Virus record (IMG/VR): IMGVR_UViG_2606217100_000002
Length of the DNA: 9,772 nucleotides
DNA from: a virus
Lineage: Duplodnaviria; Heunggongvirae; Uroviricota; Caudoviricetes
Reading direction: 5' to 3' (one strand)
Shown here: piece by piece, positions 1 through 9,772 of the stretch
How positions within the stretch are numbered: position 1 is the stretch's first letter
Layout of the letters: the number at the start of each line of letters is the position of its first letter
Position numbers and translations under genes: made by a program
Notes under the pieces: generated by a model
Told to the model about the DNA's origin: nothing
The model's database searches: none
What the model saw: the letters and a program-made list of their open reading frames with translations, nothing else

Positions 1-258
1 ATGCAAACCGTTATTTTTGGTCGTTCGGGTTGCCCTTACTGTGTGCGTGCAAAAGATCTGGCTGAGAAATTGAGCAATGAACGCGATGATTTTCAGTATC
101 AGTATGTAGATATTCGTGCGGAAGGGATCACTAAAGAAGATCTACAACAAAAGGCAGGTAAACCCGTAGAAACCGTGCCGCAGATTTTTGTCGATCAGCA
201 ACATATCGGCGGCTATACCGATTTTGCTGCATGGGTGAAAGAAAATCTGGACGCCTGA
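1..258 (+). CDS. grxA: glutaredoxin 1
   Basis: Complete 85-aa ORF with CPYC active-site motif near the N-terminus; sequence recognised as enterobacterial Grx1; TGA stop at 256-258 followed by a hairpin terminator. Confidence 0.93.
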   Translation: MQTVIFGRSGCPYCVRAKDLAEKLSNERDDFQYQYVDIRAEGITKEDLQQKAGKPVETVPQIFVDQQHIGGYTDFAAWVKENLDA

Positions 259-267
259 TCGTCTGAC

Positions 268-300
268 AAGCCCTCGCGTTGAGGGCTTTACTGATTTTTT
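268..300. terminator. intrinsic terminator shared by the convergent grxA and ybjM genes
   Basis: Stem AGCCCTC (269-275) / GAGGGCT (281-287) with 5-nt loop, followed by a T6 run at 295-300; lies between two convergent genes and overlaps the ybjM stop. Confidence 0.6.
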
Positions 301-665
301 CTGTGCTGTGGTTTAAACAAACTACTGATAAATAAGAAACACAGTGCCCCCAGCGCACACCAGAACACCGCGCTTAGTAACCATGCCAGCTCTTGCCAGA
401 ATGAGCGCGTCGGTGAAAAAAACAGCCGCATAATGAGCATTGAACAGGGTGCCGCCAGCATTGCGCCAAATAGAGGTTTCAGGACTTCTCTACGCTGTGA
501 AAAGAAACTGGCAACTGCTCCAGGAAGAATGAAAAATAGCAAGCCGATTTCAGGATGCCCGGCAGCCCGAAAAGCGCCTTTCATGTGCGTCGCCAGAAAA
601 AGGCACACCACAATGAAGAGGACAAAACAGCAGATTGCCCCCGCCCAACGTTGTTTATGTTTCAC
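288..665 (-). CDS. ybjM: inner membrane protein YbjM (function unknown)
   Basis: 125-aa ORF, very hydrophobic with several predicted transmembrane helices; conserved position between grxA and ybjL as in E. coli. Confidence 0.85.
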   Translation of the reverse strand: MKHKQRWAGAICCFVLFIVVCLFLATHMKGAFRAAGHPEIGLLFFILPGAVASFFSQRREVLKPLFGAMLAAPCSMLIMRLFFSPTRSFWQELAWLLSAVFWCALGALCFLFISSLFKPQHRKNQ

Positions 666-934
666 TCGTTCCTCCTGACACTGCGTCTATCGAACACATT
701 TTTCGCCAGTGTGGCGTTCAGTAAGATAAAGCCGCTTCGCATTCCATGCTAATATAGGCCAACGCAATTCATATAGCCGTTGATACCTAATGTGATTACA
801 CTAGTAAAATATATTGTTACTTTACTATCGTTTAGGTGCGCTGAATGAATCTGCGCCCTGAATTCTGGTAAAAAACATTATCGTAAATTACCATTTCTTT
901 CAACAGCTTACTAGTAAACAAGAAGTTAGCCTCC

Positions 935-2620
935 GTGAATATAAACGTCGCCGAATTGTTAAATGGGAATTACATTCTGTTATTATTTGTGGTCCTCGCG
1001 CTTGGGCTATGTCTCGGAAAGTTACGACTTGGTTCGATCCAACTGGGTAATTCCATTGGCGTTTTAGTCGTATCGCTGTTATTAGGCCAACAACATTTCA
1101 GCATTAACACCGATGCGCTTAATCTTGGCTTTATGCTGTTTATTTTCTGCGTCGGGGTCGAAGCCGGACCGAACTTTTTTTCCATTTTTTTTCGCGATGG
1201 GAAAAATTACCTAATGTTAGCACTGGTGATGGTTGGCAGTGCGCTGGTGATCGCCTTAGGGTTAGGTAAGCTGTTTGGCTGGGATATTGGCCTGACGGCC
1301 GGTATGTTAGCAGGCTCTATGACGTCGACACCGGTTCTGGTCGGTGCTGGCGATACACTGCGTCATTTCGGCATGGAAAGCAGGCAGCTCTCACTGGCAC
1401 TGGATAATCTGAGCCTCGGGTATGCCTTAACCTATTTAATCGGTCTGGTGAGTTTGATTGTTGGTGCGCGTTACTTGCCGAAATTGCAGCATCAGGACTT
1501 ACAGACCAGCGCCCAGCAAATCGCCCGCGAACGTGGCCTGGACACTGATGCCAACCGTAAGGTTTATTTACCGGTGATCCGCGCCTATCGCGTCGGCCCG
1601 GAGCTGGTGGCCTGGACCGACGGCAAAAATCTGCGTGAACTGGGTATTTATCGACAAACCGGCTGCTACATTGAACGTATTCGACGTAACGGGATTCTGG
1701 CAAATCCAGACGGTGATGCCGTGCTACAAATGGGCGATGAAATAGCGTTGGTAGGCTATCCCGACGCCCATGCCCGACTCGATCCCAGCTTCCGTAACGG
1801 TAAAGAAGTTTTCGATCGTGACCTTCTCGACATGCGTATCGTCACTGAAGAAGTGGTCGTTAAAAACCATAACGCTGTAGGTAAACGTCTCGCACAACTG
1901 AAGTTGACCGATCACGGTTGCTTCCTTAACCGCGTCATTCGTAGCCAGATTGAGATGCCGATAGATGACAACGTCGTGCTTAACAAAGGTGACGTTTTAC
2001 AAGTCAGCGGTGATGCCCGTCGCGTAAAAACCATCGCCGATCGCATCGGCTTTATCTCGATTCACAGCCAGGTCACTGACCTGCTGGCATTTTGCGCCTT
2101 CTTTGTTATTGGGCTGATGATCGGGATGATCACCTTCCAGTTCAGCACATTCAGTTTCGGCATGGGGAACGCTGCCGGGTTGTTATTCGCCGGAATTATG
2201 CTGGGCTTTATGCGTGCTAACCACCCGACCTTCGGTTACATTCCGCAAGGTGCATTAAGCATGGTGAAAGAGTTCGGCTTGATGGTGTTTATGGCAGGCG
2301 TTGGTCTGAGCGCCGGTAGCGGTATTAATAACGGCCTGGGCGCGATTGGCGGTCAGATGTTGATTGCCGGATTAATTGTCAGTCTTGTGCCCGTGGTTAT
2401 CTGTTTCTTGTTCGGTGCTTATGTATTGCGAATGAACCGCGCACTGTTGTTCGGCGCAATGATGGGCGCACGCACCTGCGCGCCGGCAATGGAGATCATC
2501 AGTGATACAGCTCGCAGTAACATCCCTGCGCTGGGCTATGCGGGCACCTACGCAATCGCCAACGTCCTGCTGACGCTGGCAGGGACAATCATCGTCATGG
2601 TATGGCCAGGATTAGGATAA
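935..2620 (+). CDS. ybjL: putative transporter YbjL (AAE-family permease with two cytoplasmic RCK_C/TrkA-C-like regulatory domains)
   Basis: 561-aa ORF with GTG start at 935; hydrophobic N- and C-terminal permease halves flanking a soluble central region; sequence recognised as E. coli YbjL. Confidence 0.92.
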
Positions 2621-2661
2621 AACTGAAGTTGCCCTGAAAATGAAATTTTTTTGCACAACCG

Positions 2662-2690
2662 CAGAACTTTTCCGCAGGGCATCAGTCTTA
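2662..2690 (+). promoter_or_regulatory. sigma-E-type promoter of rybB
   Basis: aGAACTT (2663-2669) resembles the sigma-E -35 GGAACTT; 16-nt spacer; TCTTA (2686-2690) resembles the sigma-E -10 TCTGA/TCAAA; about 6 nt upstream of the RybB 5' end at 2697. Confidence 0.55.
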
Positions 2691-2696
2691 ATTAGT

Positions 2697-2775
2697 GCCA
2701 CTGCTTTTCTTTGATGTCCCCATTTTGTGGAGCCCATCAACCCCGCCATTTCGGTTCAAGGTTGATGGGTTTTTT
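2697..2775 (+). ncRNA. rybB: RybB small regulatory RNA (Hfq-dependent, sigma-E regulon, represses outer-membrane protein mRNAs)
   Basis: 79-nt sequence starting GCCACTGCTTTTCTTTGATGTCCCC (the known RybB seed) and ending in a 10-bp stem (CCCATCAACC 2733-2742 / GGTTGATGGG 2760-2769) plus T6 (2770-2775); located downstream of ybjL as in E. coli. Confidence 0.85.
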
Positions 2776-2833
2776 GTTGCCTGAAATTTATGCTATTTAA
2801 AATCATGATGTTAGAAGCACTGTTTTTTAACGA

Positions 2834-2855
2834 TGGCGACAAAATGGCGGCAGCG
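2834..2855 (+). repeat. 22-bp direct repeat, left copy (TGGCGACAAAATGGCGGCAGCG); candidate att core or Int arm-type site pair
   Basis: Matches 9733-9754 at 21 of 22 positions in the same orientation; directly abuts the ogr stop codon; contains two TGGCG half-sites spaced 11 bp apart. Confidence 0.5.
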
Positions 2856-3074
2856 TCAAAGAGAGAGCGCCACCTGTCCTGATTTCATTGGATGCGGCTG
2901 AACCGGATTTGACTCTTTGGGCGTTGCAATCGAACGAACAAAAGTTTCATGGGTAACAAAAGTATGGCTGCAGTTAATGTTCTGGCACTGGTTGTAACGC
3001 TCTTTGGTCAATGAAGATACCTGAAAACTGCTGCGAGTATGGGCGGCACTTCCACACAGTGGGCAAATCATCAT
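2856..3074 (-). CDS. ogr: Ogr/Delta-family zinc-finger late-gene transcriptional activator
   Basis: About 72 aa from ATG at 3074 (GGGAGA RBS 8 nt upstream); C-x2-C ... C-x4-C zinc-binding pattern (CPLCGSAAH ... CQNINCSHTF) resembling P2 Ogr; sits downstream of D as in P2. The tracked ORF extends to a GTG at 3107, which seems less likely. Confidence 0.85.
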   Translation of the reverse strand: MMICPLCGSAAHTRSSFQVSSLTKERYNQCQNINCSHTFVTHETFVRSIATPKESNPVQPHPMKSGQVALSL

Positions 3075-3164
3075 TTTTCGAGTTCTCCCCATTTTTGCTA
3101 AATTCACAATAATGATACCGCATTATTCCATTTTGCAAACTTAAAAGTTCTCCATTGCGAAGAA

Positions 3165-4265
3165 TCATTCCATTTCGAAATCATCAATCCTCACTTCAAG
3201 CTCCAGACTGGTCGTAAAACCATTATCCGGGCTGACGGTATGTGTCAGAGTCGTAATGGTCCATTCCGCATCATCTATCGGCTGTTTAAAGCCACTGACT
3301 TTCACTGGCATTTCCGTGTAGAGATCTGCCCGCCCTTCCGCCAGTTGTAGCGAGAATGACGCAACGCCGCGTTGCAGGCGTTCCCACTGCATTTTTGCCG
3401 CTCGTTCGGCGTTGCTCCGGTTGGCATAAGTGCGATTAAGTACCAGCACGTTTTCATCCGTCCCCACCAGGTAATCGCCCTGCTTCGCTTCCGGCTCTTT
3501 CTTCTGCTTCTTGGTCCTGCGATTACGCTTCACTGTAGTGCTTTCTTTCTTCGCAGGTTCGCGGGTATGCAACCAGCTGGCAATTACGCCCGTGTAGGCT
3601 CCGCGATCCGCCAGGGTAAAGCGGTGACTGTCGCCGTCCTTGCGTGTGATAGTGATCACCGGCAGTGGTTTACCGCTGGCACTTTTACCCTGTCCCTGCC
3701 GGATGAATAACAGATTGCTATTTTTCACCGACGCAATAGCACCGTACTGGCGCGCCAGCCGCATCAGAAAACTGCCGTCACTCTCATTAGTCTGGTCTAT
3801 ATGATCCACGGGTTTATCCGACAGGTCTTTACCCAGTGCCATCTTCAGTTTGTGACGCGCAGCTATTTCCTTCACCACTTCCCCGACCGTGGTCTTGTGC
3901 CACGATTTTTCACGGCGGGTATTCAGCGTTTCCCGAAAATCAGCACTTCGCGCCCGGATGGTCAGGCGGTCCGGTGCGCCAGTGTGTTCAATCTCGTCCA
4001 CCGTGAATGCCCCTTTCGGGAAAAGCGGCTGCCCCTTCCAGCCCAGCGCCAGCGTAATGACCGCACCACGGCGCGGCAGCACGATTTTTCCGTCGGCGTC
4101 GTCCAGCTCCAGATCAAGCTGGTCTGCTTCAAAGCCCCGGTTATCCGTCAGCGTCAGCCCCATCAGGCGGTTGTCCAGCACAGTGGTGATATCCCTGCCT
4201 TCAATACTGATGCTGAATGCCGGAGTTTTGTTACCTTTGTTAAGCAGTTCAGAGCTGAAATTCAC
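3165..4265 (-). CDS. gpD: P2 gpD-like tail protein (late control gene D family)
   Basis: 366-aa ORF immediately upstream of ogr, the gpD position in P2; start overlaps the upstream gene stop in an ATGA arrangement (translational coupling); GC-rich phage-type composition. Confidence 0.8.
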   Translation of the reverse strand: MNFSSELLNKGNKTPAFSISIEGRDITTVLDNRLMGLTLTDNRGFEADQLDLELDDADGKIVLPRRGAVITLALGWKGQPLFPKGAFTVDEIEHTGAPDRLTIRARSADFRETLNTRREKSWHKTTVGEVVKEIAARHKLKMALGKDLSDKPVDHIDQTNESDGSFLMRLARQYGAIASVKNSNLLFIRQGQGKSASGKPLPVITITRKDGDSHRFTLADRGAYTGVIASWLHTREPAKKESTTVKRNRRTKKQKKEPEAKQGDYLVGTDENVLVLNRTYANRSNAERAAKMQWERLQRGVASFSLQLAEGRADLYTEMPVKVSGFKQPIDDAEWTITTLTHTVSPDNGFTTSLELEVRIDDFEME

Positions 4266-4747
4266 GACAGCAGCCCTCCCACCGTTTTACTGATATCGCT
4301 TAATGCAGACGTTGCCGTATCCTGCAGATTATTCAGTTGCGTACTGAGATCACCGAACATATCGGACAGGGATTCATCCACCCGTTTGAGCGACAGGGTG
4401 AACTCAATCCGGCGCGGCATACCGTCGCGGAAAAACTCCGTTTTAGTCAGATTCAGTCCCTCAATCACATACATGCCGTAAATCGTGCCACTGCCTTCAA
4501 TCAGGGGCCATGCTTTTCCCTGTTCTGCCATCTGCTCCAGAGCCAGCAACGACAGCCTGCCGCCCGTTATCTCCGGCATAAGAACACCAGAAAGCGTCAG
4601 CATGTCGTTGTCCGGTCCCAGAAACTGCGTGGACGGACGACGGTTTACCCGGCTGTTTGCCGCATGTCGCCAGCTGCGTTGATACTGCAGTTCCTGATAC
4701 GGAACGGTGCGCAGCATAAACACGTACAATCCCAGCACCATCATCAT
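4262..4747 (-). CDS. gpU: P2 gpU-like tail protein
   Basis: 161-aa ORF between the T remnant and D, matching P2 order T-U-D; ATGA overlaps at both ends (4744-4747 and 4262-4265). Confidence 0.78.
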   Translation of the reverse strand: MMMVLGLYVFMLRTVPYQELQYQRSWRHAANSRVNRRPSTQFLGPDNDMLTLSGVLMPEITGGRLSLLALEQMAEQGKAWPLIEGSGTIYGMYVIEGLNLTKTEFFRDGMPRRIEFTLSLKRVDESLSDMFGDLSTQLNNLQDTATSALSDISKTVGGLLS

Positions 4748-5994
4748 GCGTCGTAACCCCCCTGATCGCTGTAGTTACTCCTGGCTTTTGCCTTCAGCCT
4801 GCGTTCACGTTCATCAAGCTGGCGGGCCACCTCCCGCGCAATATCCTGCGCACTTTGTCCAGGCTGCGTCTGGATGATGATCTGCATCGGTGCCTCAATC
4901 CTGTAAACGGGCGGCACAGTGGCTGCGCGACTCACCATCGCTTCTCCACCTTTCGCGGGAAGTGCCAAAGGGTGCAACGGTGGAAGCTCTGCTGGCGCGG
5001 CAGCAACGCCCATCATTCCGGCAACAACGGCAGCCAGTGCAGCTGTATTTCTCCGGCTGGTCACATTTGCCGGGCCATTAACAATTTCCGGCCCGTTTTC
5101 ACCGACGATGCCAAACTGCCCGCGCGGGATATAGCCGCCGCTGTCATACATCCCCGCAAAGCCATATCCCCATGACGGAAAACCACCCGATGGCATCATC
5201 ACTTTACCGTCTGCATTCACCGTCGCAGTTTGCTGACGCGTCACGCTTTCCGGCAGTTTTGCCTTTGCGGCCTCTTTACTGACAATGCCGAGCTTCTCCA
5301 GCAACCAGGAAACGCCGGATTTCAGGGAGTCCAGCGGATGCATGACCATATTCAGCCCTTCCGCCAGTGCCTCCCCGAATCGTCGCCCCATTGCCGCTGC
5401 GCTCTGCAGTTCGGCAGAGGTCGACTTAACGGGCGTCAGCAGATCAGTAAACCAGCCCCACAGCGCCTGTACTTTGTCGCCAATCCACTGAAACACAGGC
5501 TTAAGTGGTTCGAATGCAGCACTGATGGGACCTGCCGCCGCTTTGAATCCTTCCACCACGCCACCGATAAATGCGGTGATGGGTTGCCAGTATTTCCAGA
5601 CAACCAGCGCCACGCCCGCCAGTGCAGTAACCACAAGACCTATCGGACTGAGCAGAGCACCTACCGCACCTGCTGCAACACGCCCGATCTCTGCAGTTGC
5701 GCTCATGACGTAATGCGGCAGTTTCTCTTTTGCTACCTCATTAATCGGTACACATGGCAGACAATGAATCTGTGCCAGAAAACCATCTACCAACGTTGAA
5801 TCTTCAGTCAGATCGGTAAGCAGCCAGATTTCTGGTGCGGTTAATAAATGAGGTTGAGCTGGGTTCAGCTTGTTCCGCAGAATCTGCACATTCATGCCCG
5901 CACGTTCTGCCAGTTGCACCAGATTGTGGCGCAGTGCGAATGCACGACAGGCTTCATCAAAATGTGGATGTTTGGAAACTTGGTAATCAAACAT
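4744..5994 (-). CDS. chimeric ORF: N-terminal ~100 aa of a 186 CII-like regulator fused in frame to the C-terminal ~300 aa of a tail tape-measure protein (gpT remnant)
   Basis: From ATG at 5994 (GAGGTG RBS upstream) the first ~100 aa ([19 protein letters not shown] ... [25 protein letters not shown]) resemble phage 186 CII family regulators; the remainder is Gly/Ala-rich hydrophobic sequence typical of the C-terminal part of P2-type tape-measure proteins and is followed by U and D. The tracked ORF start at 6048 would overlap the upstream gene. Confidence 0.62.
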
Positions 5995-6026
5995 GGTCGA
6001 CACCTCTGATGTATCCCAAAATGGAA

Positions 6027-6248
6027 CTAGTTGAATACAACATTGCAATCAGTAAGTGCATCAACGGTAAGAGCAGCAAGGTTGATCATTACCTTTTCTC
6101 TTTTCTTGTCTTTACGAAGACGATGCCGAGGAATGCGACCATCCGCCAACATATCGTTGATTGTGTCGATTGAAAGACCAGTAAGTTCGCTATAACGCTC
6201 GATTGTGACGTGTGGCGTATTCAGAGTTATTGAAATGTTAGGGGTCAT
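6027..6248 (-). CDS. Apl/Cox-like small DNA-binding protein (excisionase / lytic-switch regulator)
   Basis: 73-aa ORF from ATG at 6248 (AGGAG 10 nt upstream); first gene of the leftward operon, divergent from cI and followed by the cII-like gene (the apl position in 186); helix-turn-helix-like segment [25 protein letters not shown]. The tracked start at 6365 would overlap cI. Confidence 0.55.
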
Positions 6249-6298
6249 GATGCAACATCTCCTATTGGCTTGTGGTGAGCCTGTAGTAATCGTGACAA

Positions 6299-6314
6299 GT
6301 ACCCAATTGGGTAC
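6299..6314. promoter_or_regulatory. perfect 16-bp palindromic operator GTACCCAATTGGGTAC in the lysis/lysogeny switch
   Basis: Perfect inverted repeat in the cI-apl intergenic region, located at about +1 to +16 of the predicted leftward early promoter and 30 bp upstream of the cI start. Confidence 0.5.
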
Positions 6315-6321
6315 AAAACTG

Positions 6322-6350
6322 ATACTAGGATCGCAAAAGAGATATGTCAA
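6322..6350 (-). promoter_or_regulatory. early (lytic, pR/Pe-like) sigma-70 promoter driving apl/cox and the cII fusion
   Basis: On the minus strand TTGACA (plus coordinates 6345-6350, overlapping the cI start codon), a 17-nt spacer, then TAGTAT (6322-6327); predicted start near 6314 at the edge of the palindrome. Confidence 0.5.
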
Positions 6351-6940
6351 CATCAAAGTACCCAAGTGAGATCAAAATAAATCCCAATAAAGGTGGTAAG
6401 GCTGCGATTGAGCGATTAGTCGAAGCCTATGGCTTTACGACACGACAGGCTTTAGCTGATCACTTGGAAGTATCAAAAAGCACACTAGCGAACAGGTATT
6501 TGCGGGATACATTTCCTGCTGACTGGATAATCCAATGTGCTCTTGAAACAGGAACCTCCCTCAAATGGTTAACTACCGGACAAGGCCTTAAGCAAAGCTC
6601 GCTGACAGCAGCTACAGAAGAGCTTGTTAAGTTTCGCCTTGCCGCAGGCAAAATGATTGAAGACGGTTCATATGTCTTCGATTCATCATTTCTTCCTGCA
6701 AACCTTTCATCACCAATTGTTGTTCAGGATGGACTCGTCACATACATTTGTGATCAAAAATTTTCTGAAGTACTTGATGGAAACTGGTTAATCAATATCG
6801 ACGGAACCTATTCCATTCGAAAAATCACAAGGCTTCCTAAAGGAATGATTAAAATTACAACAGCAGAGAATAGCTTTGAATGTGCATTTTCTGATATTGA
6901 AGTGGTTGCTTGTATAAGAAGTACAATAGTCTCGAATTAA
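6344..6940 (+). CDS. cI: phage CI-type immunity repressor (186 CI-like: N-terminal HTH plus C-terminal oligomerisation domain)
   Basis: 198-aa ORF; N-terminal helix-turn-helix region (GFTTRQALADHLEVSKSTLANRYL) typical of the phage CI repressor family; divergent from the apl/cox-like gene and upstream of int as in P2/186. Confidence 0.8.
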   Translation: MSTSKYPSEIKINPNKGGKAAIERLVEAYGFTTRQALADHLEVSKSTLANRYLRDTFPADWIIQCALETGTSLKWLTTGQGLKQSSLTAATEELVKFRLAAGKMIEDGSYVFDSSFLPANLSSPIVVQDGLVTYICDQKFSEVLDGNWLINIDGTYSIRKITRLPKGMIKITTAENSFECAFSDIEVVACIRSTIVSN

Positions 6941-6960: not shown

Positions 6961-8637
6961 ATGAATTCATTTGCCATCGTTATACTCTTATTAGCATTTC
7001 TCGCCCCTGTTCTAGCTGTAATATTATTTAAACAAAGTAAAAAACACAAAGCGGCTATAGATAACCTGACAGCTAACAACATAGCCCTTTCTAACCAACT
7101 GATTGAAAATCAAGAAAAACTAGCACAGACCGTACGAGAATTATCAGAGCTTGAAGGGCGAGCAGCACCATTGTGGCAATACGAAGAATTGCACAGCGCA
7201 GTAATGGATGCAGAGAATAAGATAAAAAATGCGGACTCAATAGCCAAGCAAAAAATAGATGAAGCCCAAATTAAGGCGGCTAAAACAGTAAACGAAGCAA
7301 ATTATCAAGCTCAGATGACAATAAGCAACGCTAATAGCGAAGCTATAGCAATCACCAAAGACGCTCGCGATGCACGCCTGAAAGCCAAAGAACGTCTTGA
7401 TAATGCTAATAATAAAGCAAATGAGCTAATCTCAAATGCTAATGACAATGCAGTAAAAATTATTTCTGATGCAGAAGAAAGAGCAAAGGAGATTGCTGGT
7501 TCAGCATATGAAGCTAAAGAGTTTGCAGAAAAATATGAAGCAGTTGCAAAATCAATGAAAAATAAAATTGAAGGTTATGGTGATGAATGGATCATCCCTA
7601 ACCGTAGTGTACTTGATGAGCTGGCAGAAAATTATGAATTTACAGATGCAGGCAAGGAATTACAAAAAGCCAGAGAGTTAACCAAATCATTAATAAAAAC
7701 TAATAAAGCTGCTTCGTGTGATTATGTTGAGCAAAACAGGCGTAATACTGCCATAAACTTTGTTTTGGATGCCTTCAATGGAAGAGTTGACAGTATTTTA
7801 TCAAAAGTCAAACACAACAATTTTGGAAAACTTTCCCAAGAAATAAAAGATGCATTTCAACTAGTAAATTACAATGGCTCTGCCTTTAGGTCCGCAAAAA
7901 TAAGTGACATCTATCTTCAGGCAAGACTCAACGAGCTAAAATGGGGTGTAGCAGTTAATGAAATTATGCTCGAAGAAAAAGAAGAGCAAAGAAGGATTAA
8001 AGAACAGCTTCGTGAAGAGGAAAGAGCTCGTAGAGAATATGAAAAAGCGATAAAAGAAGCTGAAAAAGAAGAAAAAGCTATTCAGCAAGCTATAAATAAA
8101 GCAACGAAAGAACTTATGCTTGCAAATGAAGAACAACGCTTAGCTTTAGAGCAAAAAATAGCTGAACTACAGTTAAAATATGAAGAAGCTGAAGCTAAAA
8201 ATCAACGAGCTATTTCTATGGCTCAACAAACCAGATCAGGCTACGTCTATATCATTAGTAATATTGGTTCATTTGGCGAAGATGTATATAAAATTGGAAT
8301 GACACGCCGCCTTGAACCACTTGATCGTGTTCGTGAACTCGGAGATGCTAGTGTTCCTTTTTCGTTCGATGTTCATGCGATGATTTATAGTGATGATGCA
8401 CCATCATTAGAAAACCATCTGCATAAAGTTTTCAACGAAAAGCAGGTCAATAAAATTAACTCACGAAAAGAGTTTTTTAACGTAAATTTAAAAGAAATCA
8501 AATCAGTTATTGAAGACATGAACATCAACGCCCACTGGACAATGTTTGCAGAGGCGAAAGAATATAGAGAGTCTCTAGCTATTGAGCAGGAGCGCAAAGC
8601 AGCCACTTCCGCCAACGATGAACTACATGTTGCTTAG
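6961..8637 (+). CDS. cargo (moron) protein: N-terminal transmembrane anchor, extended coiled coils, DUF4041-like middle region and C-terminal T5orf172/GIY-YIG-type nuclease domain; candidate anti-phage defence effector
   Basis: 558-aa ORF with AAAGGA RBS 8 nt upstream of ATG, 20 bp after the cI stop. Residues 5-23 hydrophobic (FAIVILLLAFLAPVLAVILF) followed by KQSKKHK. Two long K/E/A-rich coiled-coil stretches. C-terminus GYVYIISN...YKIGMTRR...RVRELGDASVPFSFDVHAMIYSDDAPSLENHLHKVF...RKEFFNV fits the GIY-(10-11)-YIG, Arg, Glu pattern of T5orf172/GIY-YIG nucleases. Markedly AT-rich relative to the flanking prophage genes. Confidence 0.6.
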   Translation: MNSFAIVILLLAFLAPVLAVILFKQSKKHKAAIDNLTANNIALSNQLIENQEKLAQTVRELSELEGRAAPLWQYEELHSAVMDAENKIKNADSIAKQKIDEAQIKAAKTVNEANYQAQMTISNANSEAIAITKDARDARLKAKERLDNANNKANELISNANDNAVKIISDAEERAKEIAGSAYEAKEFAEKYEAVAKSMKNKIEGYGDEWIIPNRSVLDELAENYEFTDAGKELQKARELTKSLIKTNKAASCDYVEQNRRNTAINFVLDAFNGRVDSILSKVKHNNFGKLSQEIKDAFQLVNYNGSAFRSAKISDIYLQARLNELKWGVAVNEIMLEEKEEQRRIKEQLREEERARREYEKAIKEAEKEEKAIQQAINKATKELMLANEEQRLALEQKIAELQLKYEEAEAKNQRAISMAQQTRSGYVYIISNIGSFGEDVYKIGMTRRLEPLDRVRELGDASVPFSFDVHAMIYSDDAPSLENHLHKVFNEKQVNKINSRKEFFNVNLKEIKSVIEDMNINAHWTMFAEAKEYRESLAIEQERKAATSANDELHVA

Positions 8638-8719: not shown

Positions 8720-9772
8720 ATGGCAGTACGAAAACTAACCACAGGGAAATGGCTTTGCGAATGTTACCCCGCCGGACGAAGTGGGCGTCGTGTGCGTAAA
8801 CAATTCGCTACCAAAGGCGAAGCACTGGCTTTTGAGCGCCACACGATGGAAGAAACCGAAGCAAAGCCCTGGCTGGGTGAATCAGTGGATCGTCGAACAC
8901 TGAAAGACGTGGTTGAGCTATGGTTCAAACTACATGGTAAATCTCTGACAGCTGGGCAGCATGTCTATGACAAATTGCTGTTGATGGTTGACGCTCTGGG
9001 CAATCCTCTTGCAACCGATCTCACCTCTAAAATGTTTGCCCACTATCGAGATAAACGCCTGACAGGCGAGATCTACTTCAGCGAGAAATGGAAGAAAGGA
9101 GCAAGCCCGGTCACCATTAACCTGGAGCAAAGCTATCTAAGTAGTGTTTTTAGCGAACTATCCCGTCTGGGCGAATGGTCGTATCCGAACCCACTGGAGA
9201 ACATGCGAAAATTCACCATCGCAGAAAAAGAGATGGCATGGCTTACCCATGAGCAGATTGTTGAATTGCTGGCTGATTGCAAACGTCAGGACCCAATTCT
9301 GGCACTGGTAGTTAAGATATGCTTAAGCACAGGCGCACGCTGGCGTGAAGCCGTAAATCTTACCCGCTCACAGGTGACCAAATACCGAATTACCTTTGTC
9401 AGAACGAAGGGGAAGAAAAACAGAAGCATCCCTATCAGTAAAGAGCTTTACGAAGAGATCATGGCGCTTGATGGGTTCAATTTCTTCACAGACTGCTATT
9501 TTCAATTTTTATCCGTGATGGAAAAAACGTCTATCGTGCTCCCTCGCGGTCAACTCACACACGTTCTGCGCCATACGTTTGCGGCGCACTTCATGATGTC
9601 GGGTGGAAACATTCTGGCCTTACAAAAAATTCTCGGACACCACGATATAAAAATGACTATGCGTTACGCACATCTGGCACCGGATCATCTAGAAACGGCG
9701 CTCCGTTTCAATCCTCTGGCAACGCTACCAAGTGGCGACAAAGTGGCGGCAGCGGTTGGCATTACCCCGTAA
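8720..9772 (+). CDS. int: P2-type tyrosine integrase (site-specific recombinase)
   Basis: 350-aa ORF; N-terminus MAVRKL.. and overall sequence resemble P2 Int; catalytic-region motifs LSTGARWREA (Arg), HVLRHTFAAHF (His-x-x-Arg) and MTMRYAHLAP (Tyr nucleophile); last gene before the presumed attachment site. Confidence 0.93.
   Translation: MAVRKLTTGKWLCECYPAGRSGRRVRKQFATKGEALAFERHTMEETEAKPWLGESVDRRTLKDVVELWFKLHGKSLTAGQHVYDKLLLMVDALGNPLATDLTSKMFAHYRDKRLTGEIYFSEKWKKGASPVTINLEQSYLSSVFSELSRLGEWSYPNPLENMRKFTIAEKEMAWLTHEQIVELLADCKRQDPILALVVKICLSTGARWREAVNLTRSQVTKYRITFVRTKGKKNRSIPISKELYEEIMALDGFNFFTDCYFQFLSVMEKTSIVLPRGQLTHVLRHTFAAHFMMSGGNILALQKILGHHDIKMTMRYAHLAPDHLETALRFNPLATLPSGDKVAAAVGITP
9733..9754 (+). 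repeat. 22-bp direct repeat, right copy (TGGCGACAAAGTGGCGGCAGCG), inside the 3' end of int
   Basis: 21 of 22 identity with 2834-2855 in the same orientation; encodes int residues ..GDKVAAA..; 18 nt before the int stop. Confidence 0.5.

Follow-up and report, generated by a model that had tools for sequence, protein, structure and literature searches.

Phage lambda Int has arm-type sites that are termed P1, P2 and P′1–P′3. The element described here shares with lambda the plan of a heterobivalent integrase, whose N-terminal domain would act on distant arm sites while bending proteins bridge arm and core, but the sequence, number and arrangement of the sites are unrelated, and homology is found at the level of the integrase family only. 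The element lies in a stretch of 9,772 nt (hereafter the window; IMG/VR record IMGVR_UViG_2606217100_000002, Caudoviricetes) and has a 22-bp repeat near both of its ends (Table 1).

In the record of phage P2 (NC_001895), the P and P′ arms are annotated as protein-binding sites of Int with the consensus tgTGGaCa. The P2 P′ arm (TGTCCACAcagTGTCCACA) is inside the last int codons, as is the int-side arm of the window. Other properties in common are two direct repeats per arm, the 11-nt spacing of the repeats, an IHF site (a candidate site in the window) on the ogr side and a central core. The recognition sequence differs, being TGGCGRCA in the window and TGTGGACA in P2, and so does attB.

In the record of phage 186 (NC_001317, 20889–21147), arm-type sites of Int with the consensus YAYCGCCAYTY are predicted to either side of attP. 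Turned to the orientation of the window, the int-side pair of 186 reads TGGCGATAAAGTGGCGGTAG and its B/ogr-side pair TGGCGATAGAATGGCGGTGG; the former is identical to the int-side copy of the window at 18 of 20 positions. Both phages have the TGGCG motif, an A-type and a G-type half-site (TGGCGAxA ... TGGCGGxA) with 11-nt spacing and in direct orientation on both sides of the core, as well as a switch with cI, a gene at the apl position and cII. Position 7 of the half-site is C in the window and T in 186; this change is concerted over all four sites and is the sole systematic difference. The integration target is the 3′ end of rybB in the window and tRNA-Ile (ileY) in 186, and the cores differ. 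Pairs are separated by 183 nt here and by 229 nt in 186, the third sites of 186 (inverted on the B side, degenerate on the int side) are not evident in the window element, and 186 has orf69 between int and the sites, whereas the window int reads through them. The attP of the element is of the 186 type but has another core specificity.

Nilsson et al. described two types of arm sites, tgTGGaCa (P2) and tgccGCCActt (186), and named three N-terminal Int positions as discriminators of arm-site type (PMC3448106). Integration at rybB is also on record. The P2-like prophages Rybb*W, Rybb*B and Rybb*Cr are located at rybB in E. coli W, B and Crooks (PMC3032704), rybB integration constitutes hotspot #29 (PMC10121019), and prophage Kpn38RybB is found at rybB of Klebsiella (PMC4048246). 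These rybB-integrated P2-like prophages (Felsduovirus/Elveevirus) have the same target gene as the window element, which differs from the full prophages in being a deletion remnant of ~7 kb. Klebsiella phage 4LV2017, whose Int is 99% identical to that of the window, carries the same 22-mers in both arms, and its record annotates att at ATGGGTTTTTTGTTGCCTG within Klebsiella rybB. P2-like integration at rybB and the arm-site consensus of the group are known already, and such sites are an ordinary feature of P2/186-like phages; no published map of arm sites for this integrase turned up in the literature search.

Table 1. Features of the rybB locus and of the prophage ends, in window coordinates
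Feature	Position	Strand	Remarks
rybB small-RNA gene, integration target	2700–2778	+	Rfam RF00110, 105.3 bits, full length 1–79
att core, left-junction copy	2765–2778	+	ATGGGTTTTTTGTT, last 14 nt of rybB
ogr-side spacer	2779–2833		between core and putative arm sites
Putative ogr-side arm ("P arm" in P2 record naming)	2834–2855	+	22-mer copy 1, TGGCGACAAAATGGCGGCAGCG; 55 nt from core
Putative ogr-side half-sites	2834–2841; 2845–2852	+	TGGCGACA; TGGCGGCA; 11 nt start to start
ogr/B late-gene activator	2856–3074	-	Pfam Ogr_Delta, E 5e-22; annotated so in L001 and L002; last gene at its end of the prophage
int, 350-aa 186-type tyrosine integrase	8720–9772	+	Pfam Int_N, Phage_integrase
Putative int-side arm ("P′ arm" in P2 record naming)	9733–9754	+	22-mer copy 2, TGGCGACAAAGTGGCGGCAGCG; 92 nt from right core in relatives
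Putative int-side half-sites	9733–9740; 9744–9751	+	TGGCGACA; TGGCGGCA; inside last 40 nt of int

The paired repeat and the type of the prophage integrase

The two copies of the 22-mer are in direct orientation and are identical at 21 of 22 positions, with the sole mismatch at position 11; the positions and orientation given in the first-pass annotation were confirmed. A scan of the window at up to three mismatches returned these two copies as the sole matches. Copy 1 adjoins the stop codon of ogr (TCA, 2856–2858, minus strand). Copy 2 is 18 nt upstream of the int stop codon (9770–9772), with which the window ends.

The idea that the repeat arose by chance, or is a common motif of chromosomes with no relation to the ends of prophages, has in its favour that the half-site TGGCGRCA alone is not enriched in the window (22 matches with up to one mismatch versus 16.5 expected). 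It is the paired 22-mer, not the single 8-nt half-site, that carries the significance. None of 200 dinucleotide-preserving shuffles of the window matched the 22-mer. The exact 22-mer is rare, with 27 stretches found in 185,579 species (one genome each); 21 of these have an int or ogr homologue within 1.2 kb, and two more have the same int-tail sequence downstream. These counts speak against the common chromosomal motif, which the first-pass annotation had itself named as a refuting alternative, and the probability of a chance origin is negligible.

With a probability of roughly 0.9, each 22-mer consists of two tandem arm-type sites for the 186-type Int that the prophage itself encodes, with one pair in each attP arm. 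This was the second of two readings put forward at first pass (paired Int half-sites one helical turn apart in each arm), and it gains support from the 186 consensus as well as from the attP of a free phage and the conservation described below. The sequence AAGTGGCGGCA (window 9741–9751) is the exact reverse complement (aagTGGCggca) of the 186 consensus tgccGCCActt, and the other three half-sites retain TGGCG and have one to three flanking differences from that consensus. Over its full length, the Int of the window shares 56% identity with that of 186; with P2 Int the identity is 35%. At the discriminator positions, W11, E14 and Y16 are common to the window Int and 186 Int, and P2 Int has Y/D/R. 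The features of the P2 type, i.e. TGTGGACA repeats together with a Y/D/R Int, were not found, and TGGCGRCA and W/E/Y are present instead. A full-text literature search for TGTGGACA returned only unrelated primer sequences. By analogy, the N-terminal domain of Int would be the reader of the arm sites. The last 13 codons of int (GDKVAAAVGITP*) span the int-side sites.

Perhaps the sites are bound by another phage protein, such as an Apl/Cox-type excisionase, the CI repressor or Ogr, since in 186 and P2 excisionase sites lie in the int-side arm beside the Int arm sites. The motif, however, fits the Int consensus and not the 186 Apl-site region (attggcaaaca/atggcaatcta), and TGGCGRCA is absent from the cI-apl switch region (~6000–6400), where Apl/CI operators must lie. 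It also tracks the type of Int, TGGCG being found with a W/E/Y Int and TGTGGACA with P2 Int, and it is present on both arms, whereas excisionase sites are on one. Binding by a protein other than Int is thus improbable.

The att core, the empty site and rybB

Two complete E. coli genomes that extend past int, NZ_CP123963 (L001) and NZ_CP051716 (L002), allow both host–phage junctions to be read; the latter is identical to the window at 399 of the last 400 nt. The sole block common to the left and right junctions in these genomes is ATGGGTTTTTTGTT, the sequence at which the 4LV2017 record also places att. The right-hand core is found 92 nt past the int-side 22-mer and 16 nt before the rcdA stop codon. 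Inferred from these relatives, the right-hand core of the window would lie ~68 nt past its end, and the DNA beyond 9772 is predicted to read TAACCACCACTGACCACC ... ATGGGTTTTTTGTTATCTAAAAC, followed by the rcdA stop codon. Read from left to right, both relatives have the core, 55 nt, one 22-mer ... the other 22-mer, 92 nt and the core again, which puts the two 22-mers within the prophage, between the cores.

The attB site was rebuilt by joining the left and right host flanks via one core, and the resulting sequence is present in real E. coli genomes with 100.0% identity across all 599 nt. Among 5,426 complete E. coli genomes, ~4,294 carry this site without an interruption; in about one in five it is interrupted. 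The empty site was read directly in one such genome (L316) as ...GGTTGATGGGTTTTTTGTTATCTAAAACTTATCTA..., and a search of 10.6 kb around it (5 kb on either side) found no match to the 22-mer at up to three mismatches. Likewise, attP was rebuilt by joining the int side and the ogr side via one core. This sequence is contiguous in Klebsiella phage KP12, where it matches in one piece with 98.1% identity over 803 nt and holds the two 22-mers at a distance of 183 nt. Although its record is filed under Klebsiella phages, KP12 is 98% identical to the E. coli element.

It should be pointed out that a direct repeat, in the same orientation and near both prophage ends, is what an att common core looks like, and the first of the two earlier readings took the 22-mer as the core at attL and attR, overlapping the 3′ end of int and with host DNA to the right of 9754. 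An att core is expected once in the empty attB, once in attP and exactly at the junctions. The 22-mer is found twice in the attP of the free phage and, as the empty-site alignment that had been proposed reveals, attB contains no part of it; the att-core reading is refuted because of these two findings, and the same alignment favours arm sites. In addition, the 14-nt block alone is common to both junctions, located 55 nt and 92 nt outside the 22-mers, and to the right of the position equivalent to 9754 both KP12 and 4LV2017 continue as phage DNA; in the two E. coli relatives another 92 nt of phage DNA follow this position. That the 22-mer is the core is hardly credible. The details of the earlier annotation fared unevenly. 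A core beyond the window end on the right is supported by the junctions of the two relatives, but the core on the left, which had been placed within 2776–2833, is ATGGGTTTTTTGTT, and the left boundary, which had been put downstream of rybB, is inside the last 14 nt of the gene. The crossover must occur inside these 14 identical nucleotides or at their edge.

The rybB terminator hairpin (2732–2778) folds at -22.4 kcal/mol, and the core covers the 3′ half of the terminator stem plus the T-run. The rybB gene is intact in the lysogen because the phage core supplies the same last 14 nt. A phage hairpin, AACCCGTTTACATAAATGGGTT with a T-run (-9 kcal/mol), is located just past the window end (L002 11321–11346); its 3′ half and T-run are the att core. 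This hairpin is a mimic of the 3′ half of the rybB terminator, and in attP it would terminate the cI-int transcript.

The attP and attB cores are identical over 19–20 nt in Klebsiella (ATGGGTTTTTTGTTGCCTG); in E. coli this identity ends after 14 nt, with attB continuing as ATCTAAAAC. Therefore the phage lineage may be native to Klebsiella-like hosts.

Layout and conservation of the putative arm sites

All four half-sites are on the plus strand, two per arm, and flank the core in both the rebuilt attP and that of KP12. The order in the free phage is int ... TGGCGACA-aag-TGGCGGCA – 92 nt – ATGGGTTTTTTGTT – 55 nt – TGGCGACA-aaa-TGGCGGCA – ogr. Judged by consensus match, the ogr-side spacer has one IHF-like site, AATCATGATGTTA (2801–2813), with one mismatch to WATCAANNNNTTR, and the int-side 92 nt have two, formed by AAACAATAAGTTA repeats and with one mismatch each. 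The elements of attP succeed one another as arm pair, int stop, two IHF-like sites, hairpin AACCCGTTTACATAAATGGGTT/core, IHF-like site, arm pair and ogr stop. Both arms can be seen together in KP12, 186 and a 186-like contig (L074) only, as nearly all IMG/VR contigs are cut-outs that end at int or ogr.

The 18 nt that follow the int-side pair (9755–9772; GTTGGCATTACCCCGTAA) stay beside the pair even where int is displaced by cargo, and are also present in L131, L135, L145, L149 and L152–L154. The TTGGCA in GTTGGCATTACCCCGTAA is similar to the TGGCAA repeats in the Apl sites of 186 and also to a third, degenerate site for Int. The sequence GTTGGCATTA, just after the pair, may be a third Int site in degenerate form or else the first site of the excisionase. 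Two further candidates were rejected. A third, inverted site GCGCCA (2868–2873, inside ogr), suggested by the one in 186, departs from TGGCGRCA at two positions, and a diverged relative (L079) does not have it. Escherichia phage vB_EcoM-813R9 had been considered as a second attP with a divergent ogr-side arm, but its record is that of a prophage with host flank (rcdA, ybjJ) and repeats the right junction only.

A motif scan of IMG/VR, a set selected by the motif itself, found the pair in 67 distinct flank contexts, mostly at prophage ends, on a total of more than 120 contigs. An independent set consisted of 54 non-redundant int tails picked by Int homology alone (55–100% identity). On the int strand, 44 of these loci have the pair TGGC(G/T)-N6-TGGC(G/T) downstream of the conserved NPL motif, and on the opposite strand none of the 54 has it; most of the ten loci that have no pair are contigs ending within ~40 nt.

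The int-side copy is coding, and part of its conservation could be at the protein level; the synonymous positions and the cargo cases argue otherwise. For 32 non-redundant sequences with an int that extends through the pair, conservation at third-codon positions in the motif is 0.97 (0.96 when two positions fixed by the way the sequences were chosen are excluded), and the mean for 28 flanking third positions is 0.61. This synonymous freeze marks a constraint on DNA rather than protein. In several relatives with cargo inserted after a shortened int, the pair is kept 490–1,420 nt downstream. In two of them (L201, L205) an unrelated 240-aa open reading frame reads through the pair and ends in ...SGDKVA(A/T)AVG(I/T)(A/T)P.

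On the ogr side, 80 loci gave 23 distinct arms, a shallow sample in that Ogr is identical in all 80. Changes within the 22-mer are confined to positions 6 (A/G), 11, 17 (G/A) and 20–22, except in the divergent L273. The ogr-side copy might be viewed as a functionless scar, i.e. an int 3′ end left behind by an earlier tandem or recombined prophage, and int-tail remnants do persist beside the motif in cargo-carrying relatives. However, the likeness between the two copies stops exactly at the edges of the 22-mer, the ogr-side copy belongs to the attP of a free phage (KP12), an equivalent ogr-side pair is present in 186 and P2, and the variation among the 23 arms spares TGGCG and CA, again with the exception of L273. 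A scar is highly improbable, and a second pair of Int arm-type sites remains the preferred reading of this copy.

The remnant, its cargo and a proposed mechanism

The window starts with grxA, ybjM, ybjL and rybB, which are followed by the P2/186-like prophage with ogr, D, U, a CII::tape-measure fusion open reading frame, an open reading frame at the apl position, cI, a DUF4041/T5orf172 gene and int. Full-length relatives match window positions 1–5663 only; ~25 kb of replication, head, lysis and tail genes are therefore missing and the prophage is defective. A 434-aa open reading frame (4744–6048, minus strand) is a deletion fusion with its junction near 5663, in which residues 28–129 are a CII (CP76) regulatory domain, while the remainder corresponds to the C-terminal portion of the tape-measure protein of the tail. 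The small open reading frame at the apl/cox position (6030–6248, minus strand) has no Pfam match and shows similarity to 186 Apl over 20 residues only. A direct repeat, AAGTACCCAATTGGGTACAAAA/AAGTACCCAAGTGAGATCAAAA, is found at 6297–6318 and 6356–6377, one copy in the cI-apl intergenic region and the other at the start of cI, and the first copy is internally palindromic; these are probably CI operator sites.

The DUF4041/T5orf172 (MUG113) protein encoded between cI and int (6961–8637, plus strand) matches the PADLOC model of the anti-phage defence system PD-Lambda-1 (E 3e-120); the immunity–integrase module thus carries a defence gene. Differing remnants are present at rybB in L001, L002 and H3/H4 (NZ_CP075487/474): D′::cII′, ogr-cII′ and one with IS1. 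The deletions in the different E. coli strains are apparently independent. All of these remnants retain ogr, the small open reading frame at the apl position, cI, the PD-Lambda-1 gene and int, and this shared gene set may represent selective retention of the immunity and defence module.

Variable cargo is also found between a shortened int (cut at about amino acid 336–340) and the pair in L200, L201, L204, L205, L210, L223 and L229 (~2510–3920 in each), and cargo is located between int and the pair in L131, L145 and L152–L154 as well. L223 carries a SocA/Panacea antitoxin and a 251-aa protein, L229 an HNH/type IV restriction-like protein, and L200 and L204 a 195-aa membrane protein; the 240-aa protein of L201 and L205, which reads through the arm sites, has weak AbiD/HEPN matches. 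The boundary between int and attP looks like an insertion hotspot. One can go further and suppose that the int-side pair is a fixed module boundary for repeated insertion of accessory, defence-like genes between int and attP, where the abutting reading frame, whether Int or cargo, reads through the sites and gains a ...GDKVAAAVGI(T/A)P tail, and where bound Int could feed back on expression of int or cargo. Insertions and read-through are observed in relatives; the proposal as a whole is tentative and rather unlikely.

A mechanism can be proposed that follows lambda, P2 and 186, and it is this analogy that suggests a physical binding of Int to the arm sites. The attP core recombines with the identical last 14 nt of rybB, and attP is split by the event; after integration, one arm-site pair lies just inside each prophage end, in direct orientation, with a copy of the core outside it. 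In the proposed mechanism, Int would bind the arm sites with its small N-terminal domain, and the core-binding and catalytic domains would bind the core. IHF-induced bends would let one Int bridge arm and core to form the intasome for integration, and addition of an Apl/Cox-type excisionase would give the intasome for excision.

When a prophage has a direct repeat near its two ends, it is easy to misread the repeat as an att core. At this locus the misreading would shift the left boundary by ~60–70 nt and the right boundary by ~100–110 nt, label phage DNA as host DNA and hide that the RybB small RNA is targeted at its 3′ end. The locus is also a clean example of how a protein-binding site, here one presumably bound by Int, can freeze synonymous positions within a gene. 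The analysis provides a full map of attP, with putative arm sites, candidate IHF sites and core, for the widespread rybB-targeting integrases of E. coli and Klebsiella, and this map could serve in predicting whether remnants are competent for excision, or in the construction of rybB-specific integration vectors.
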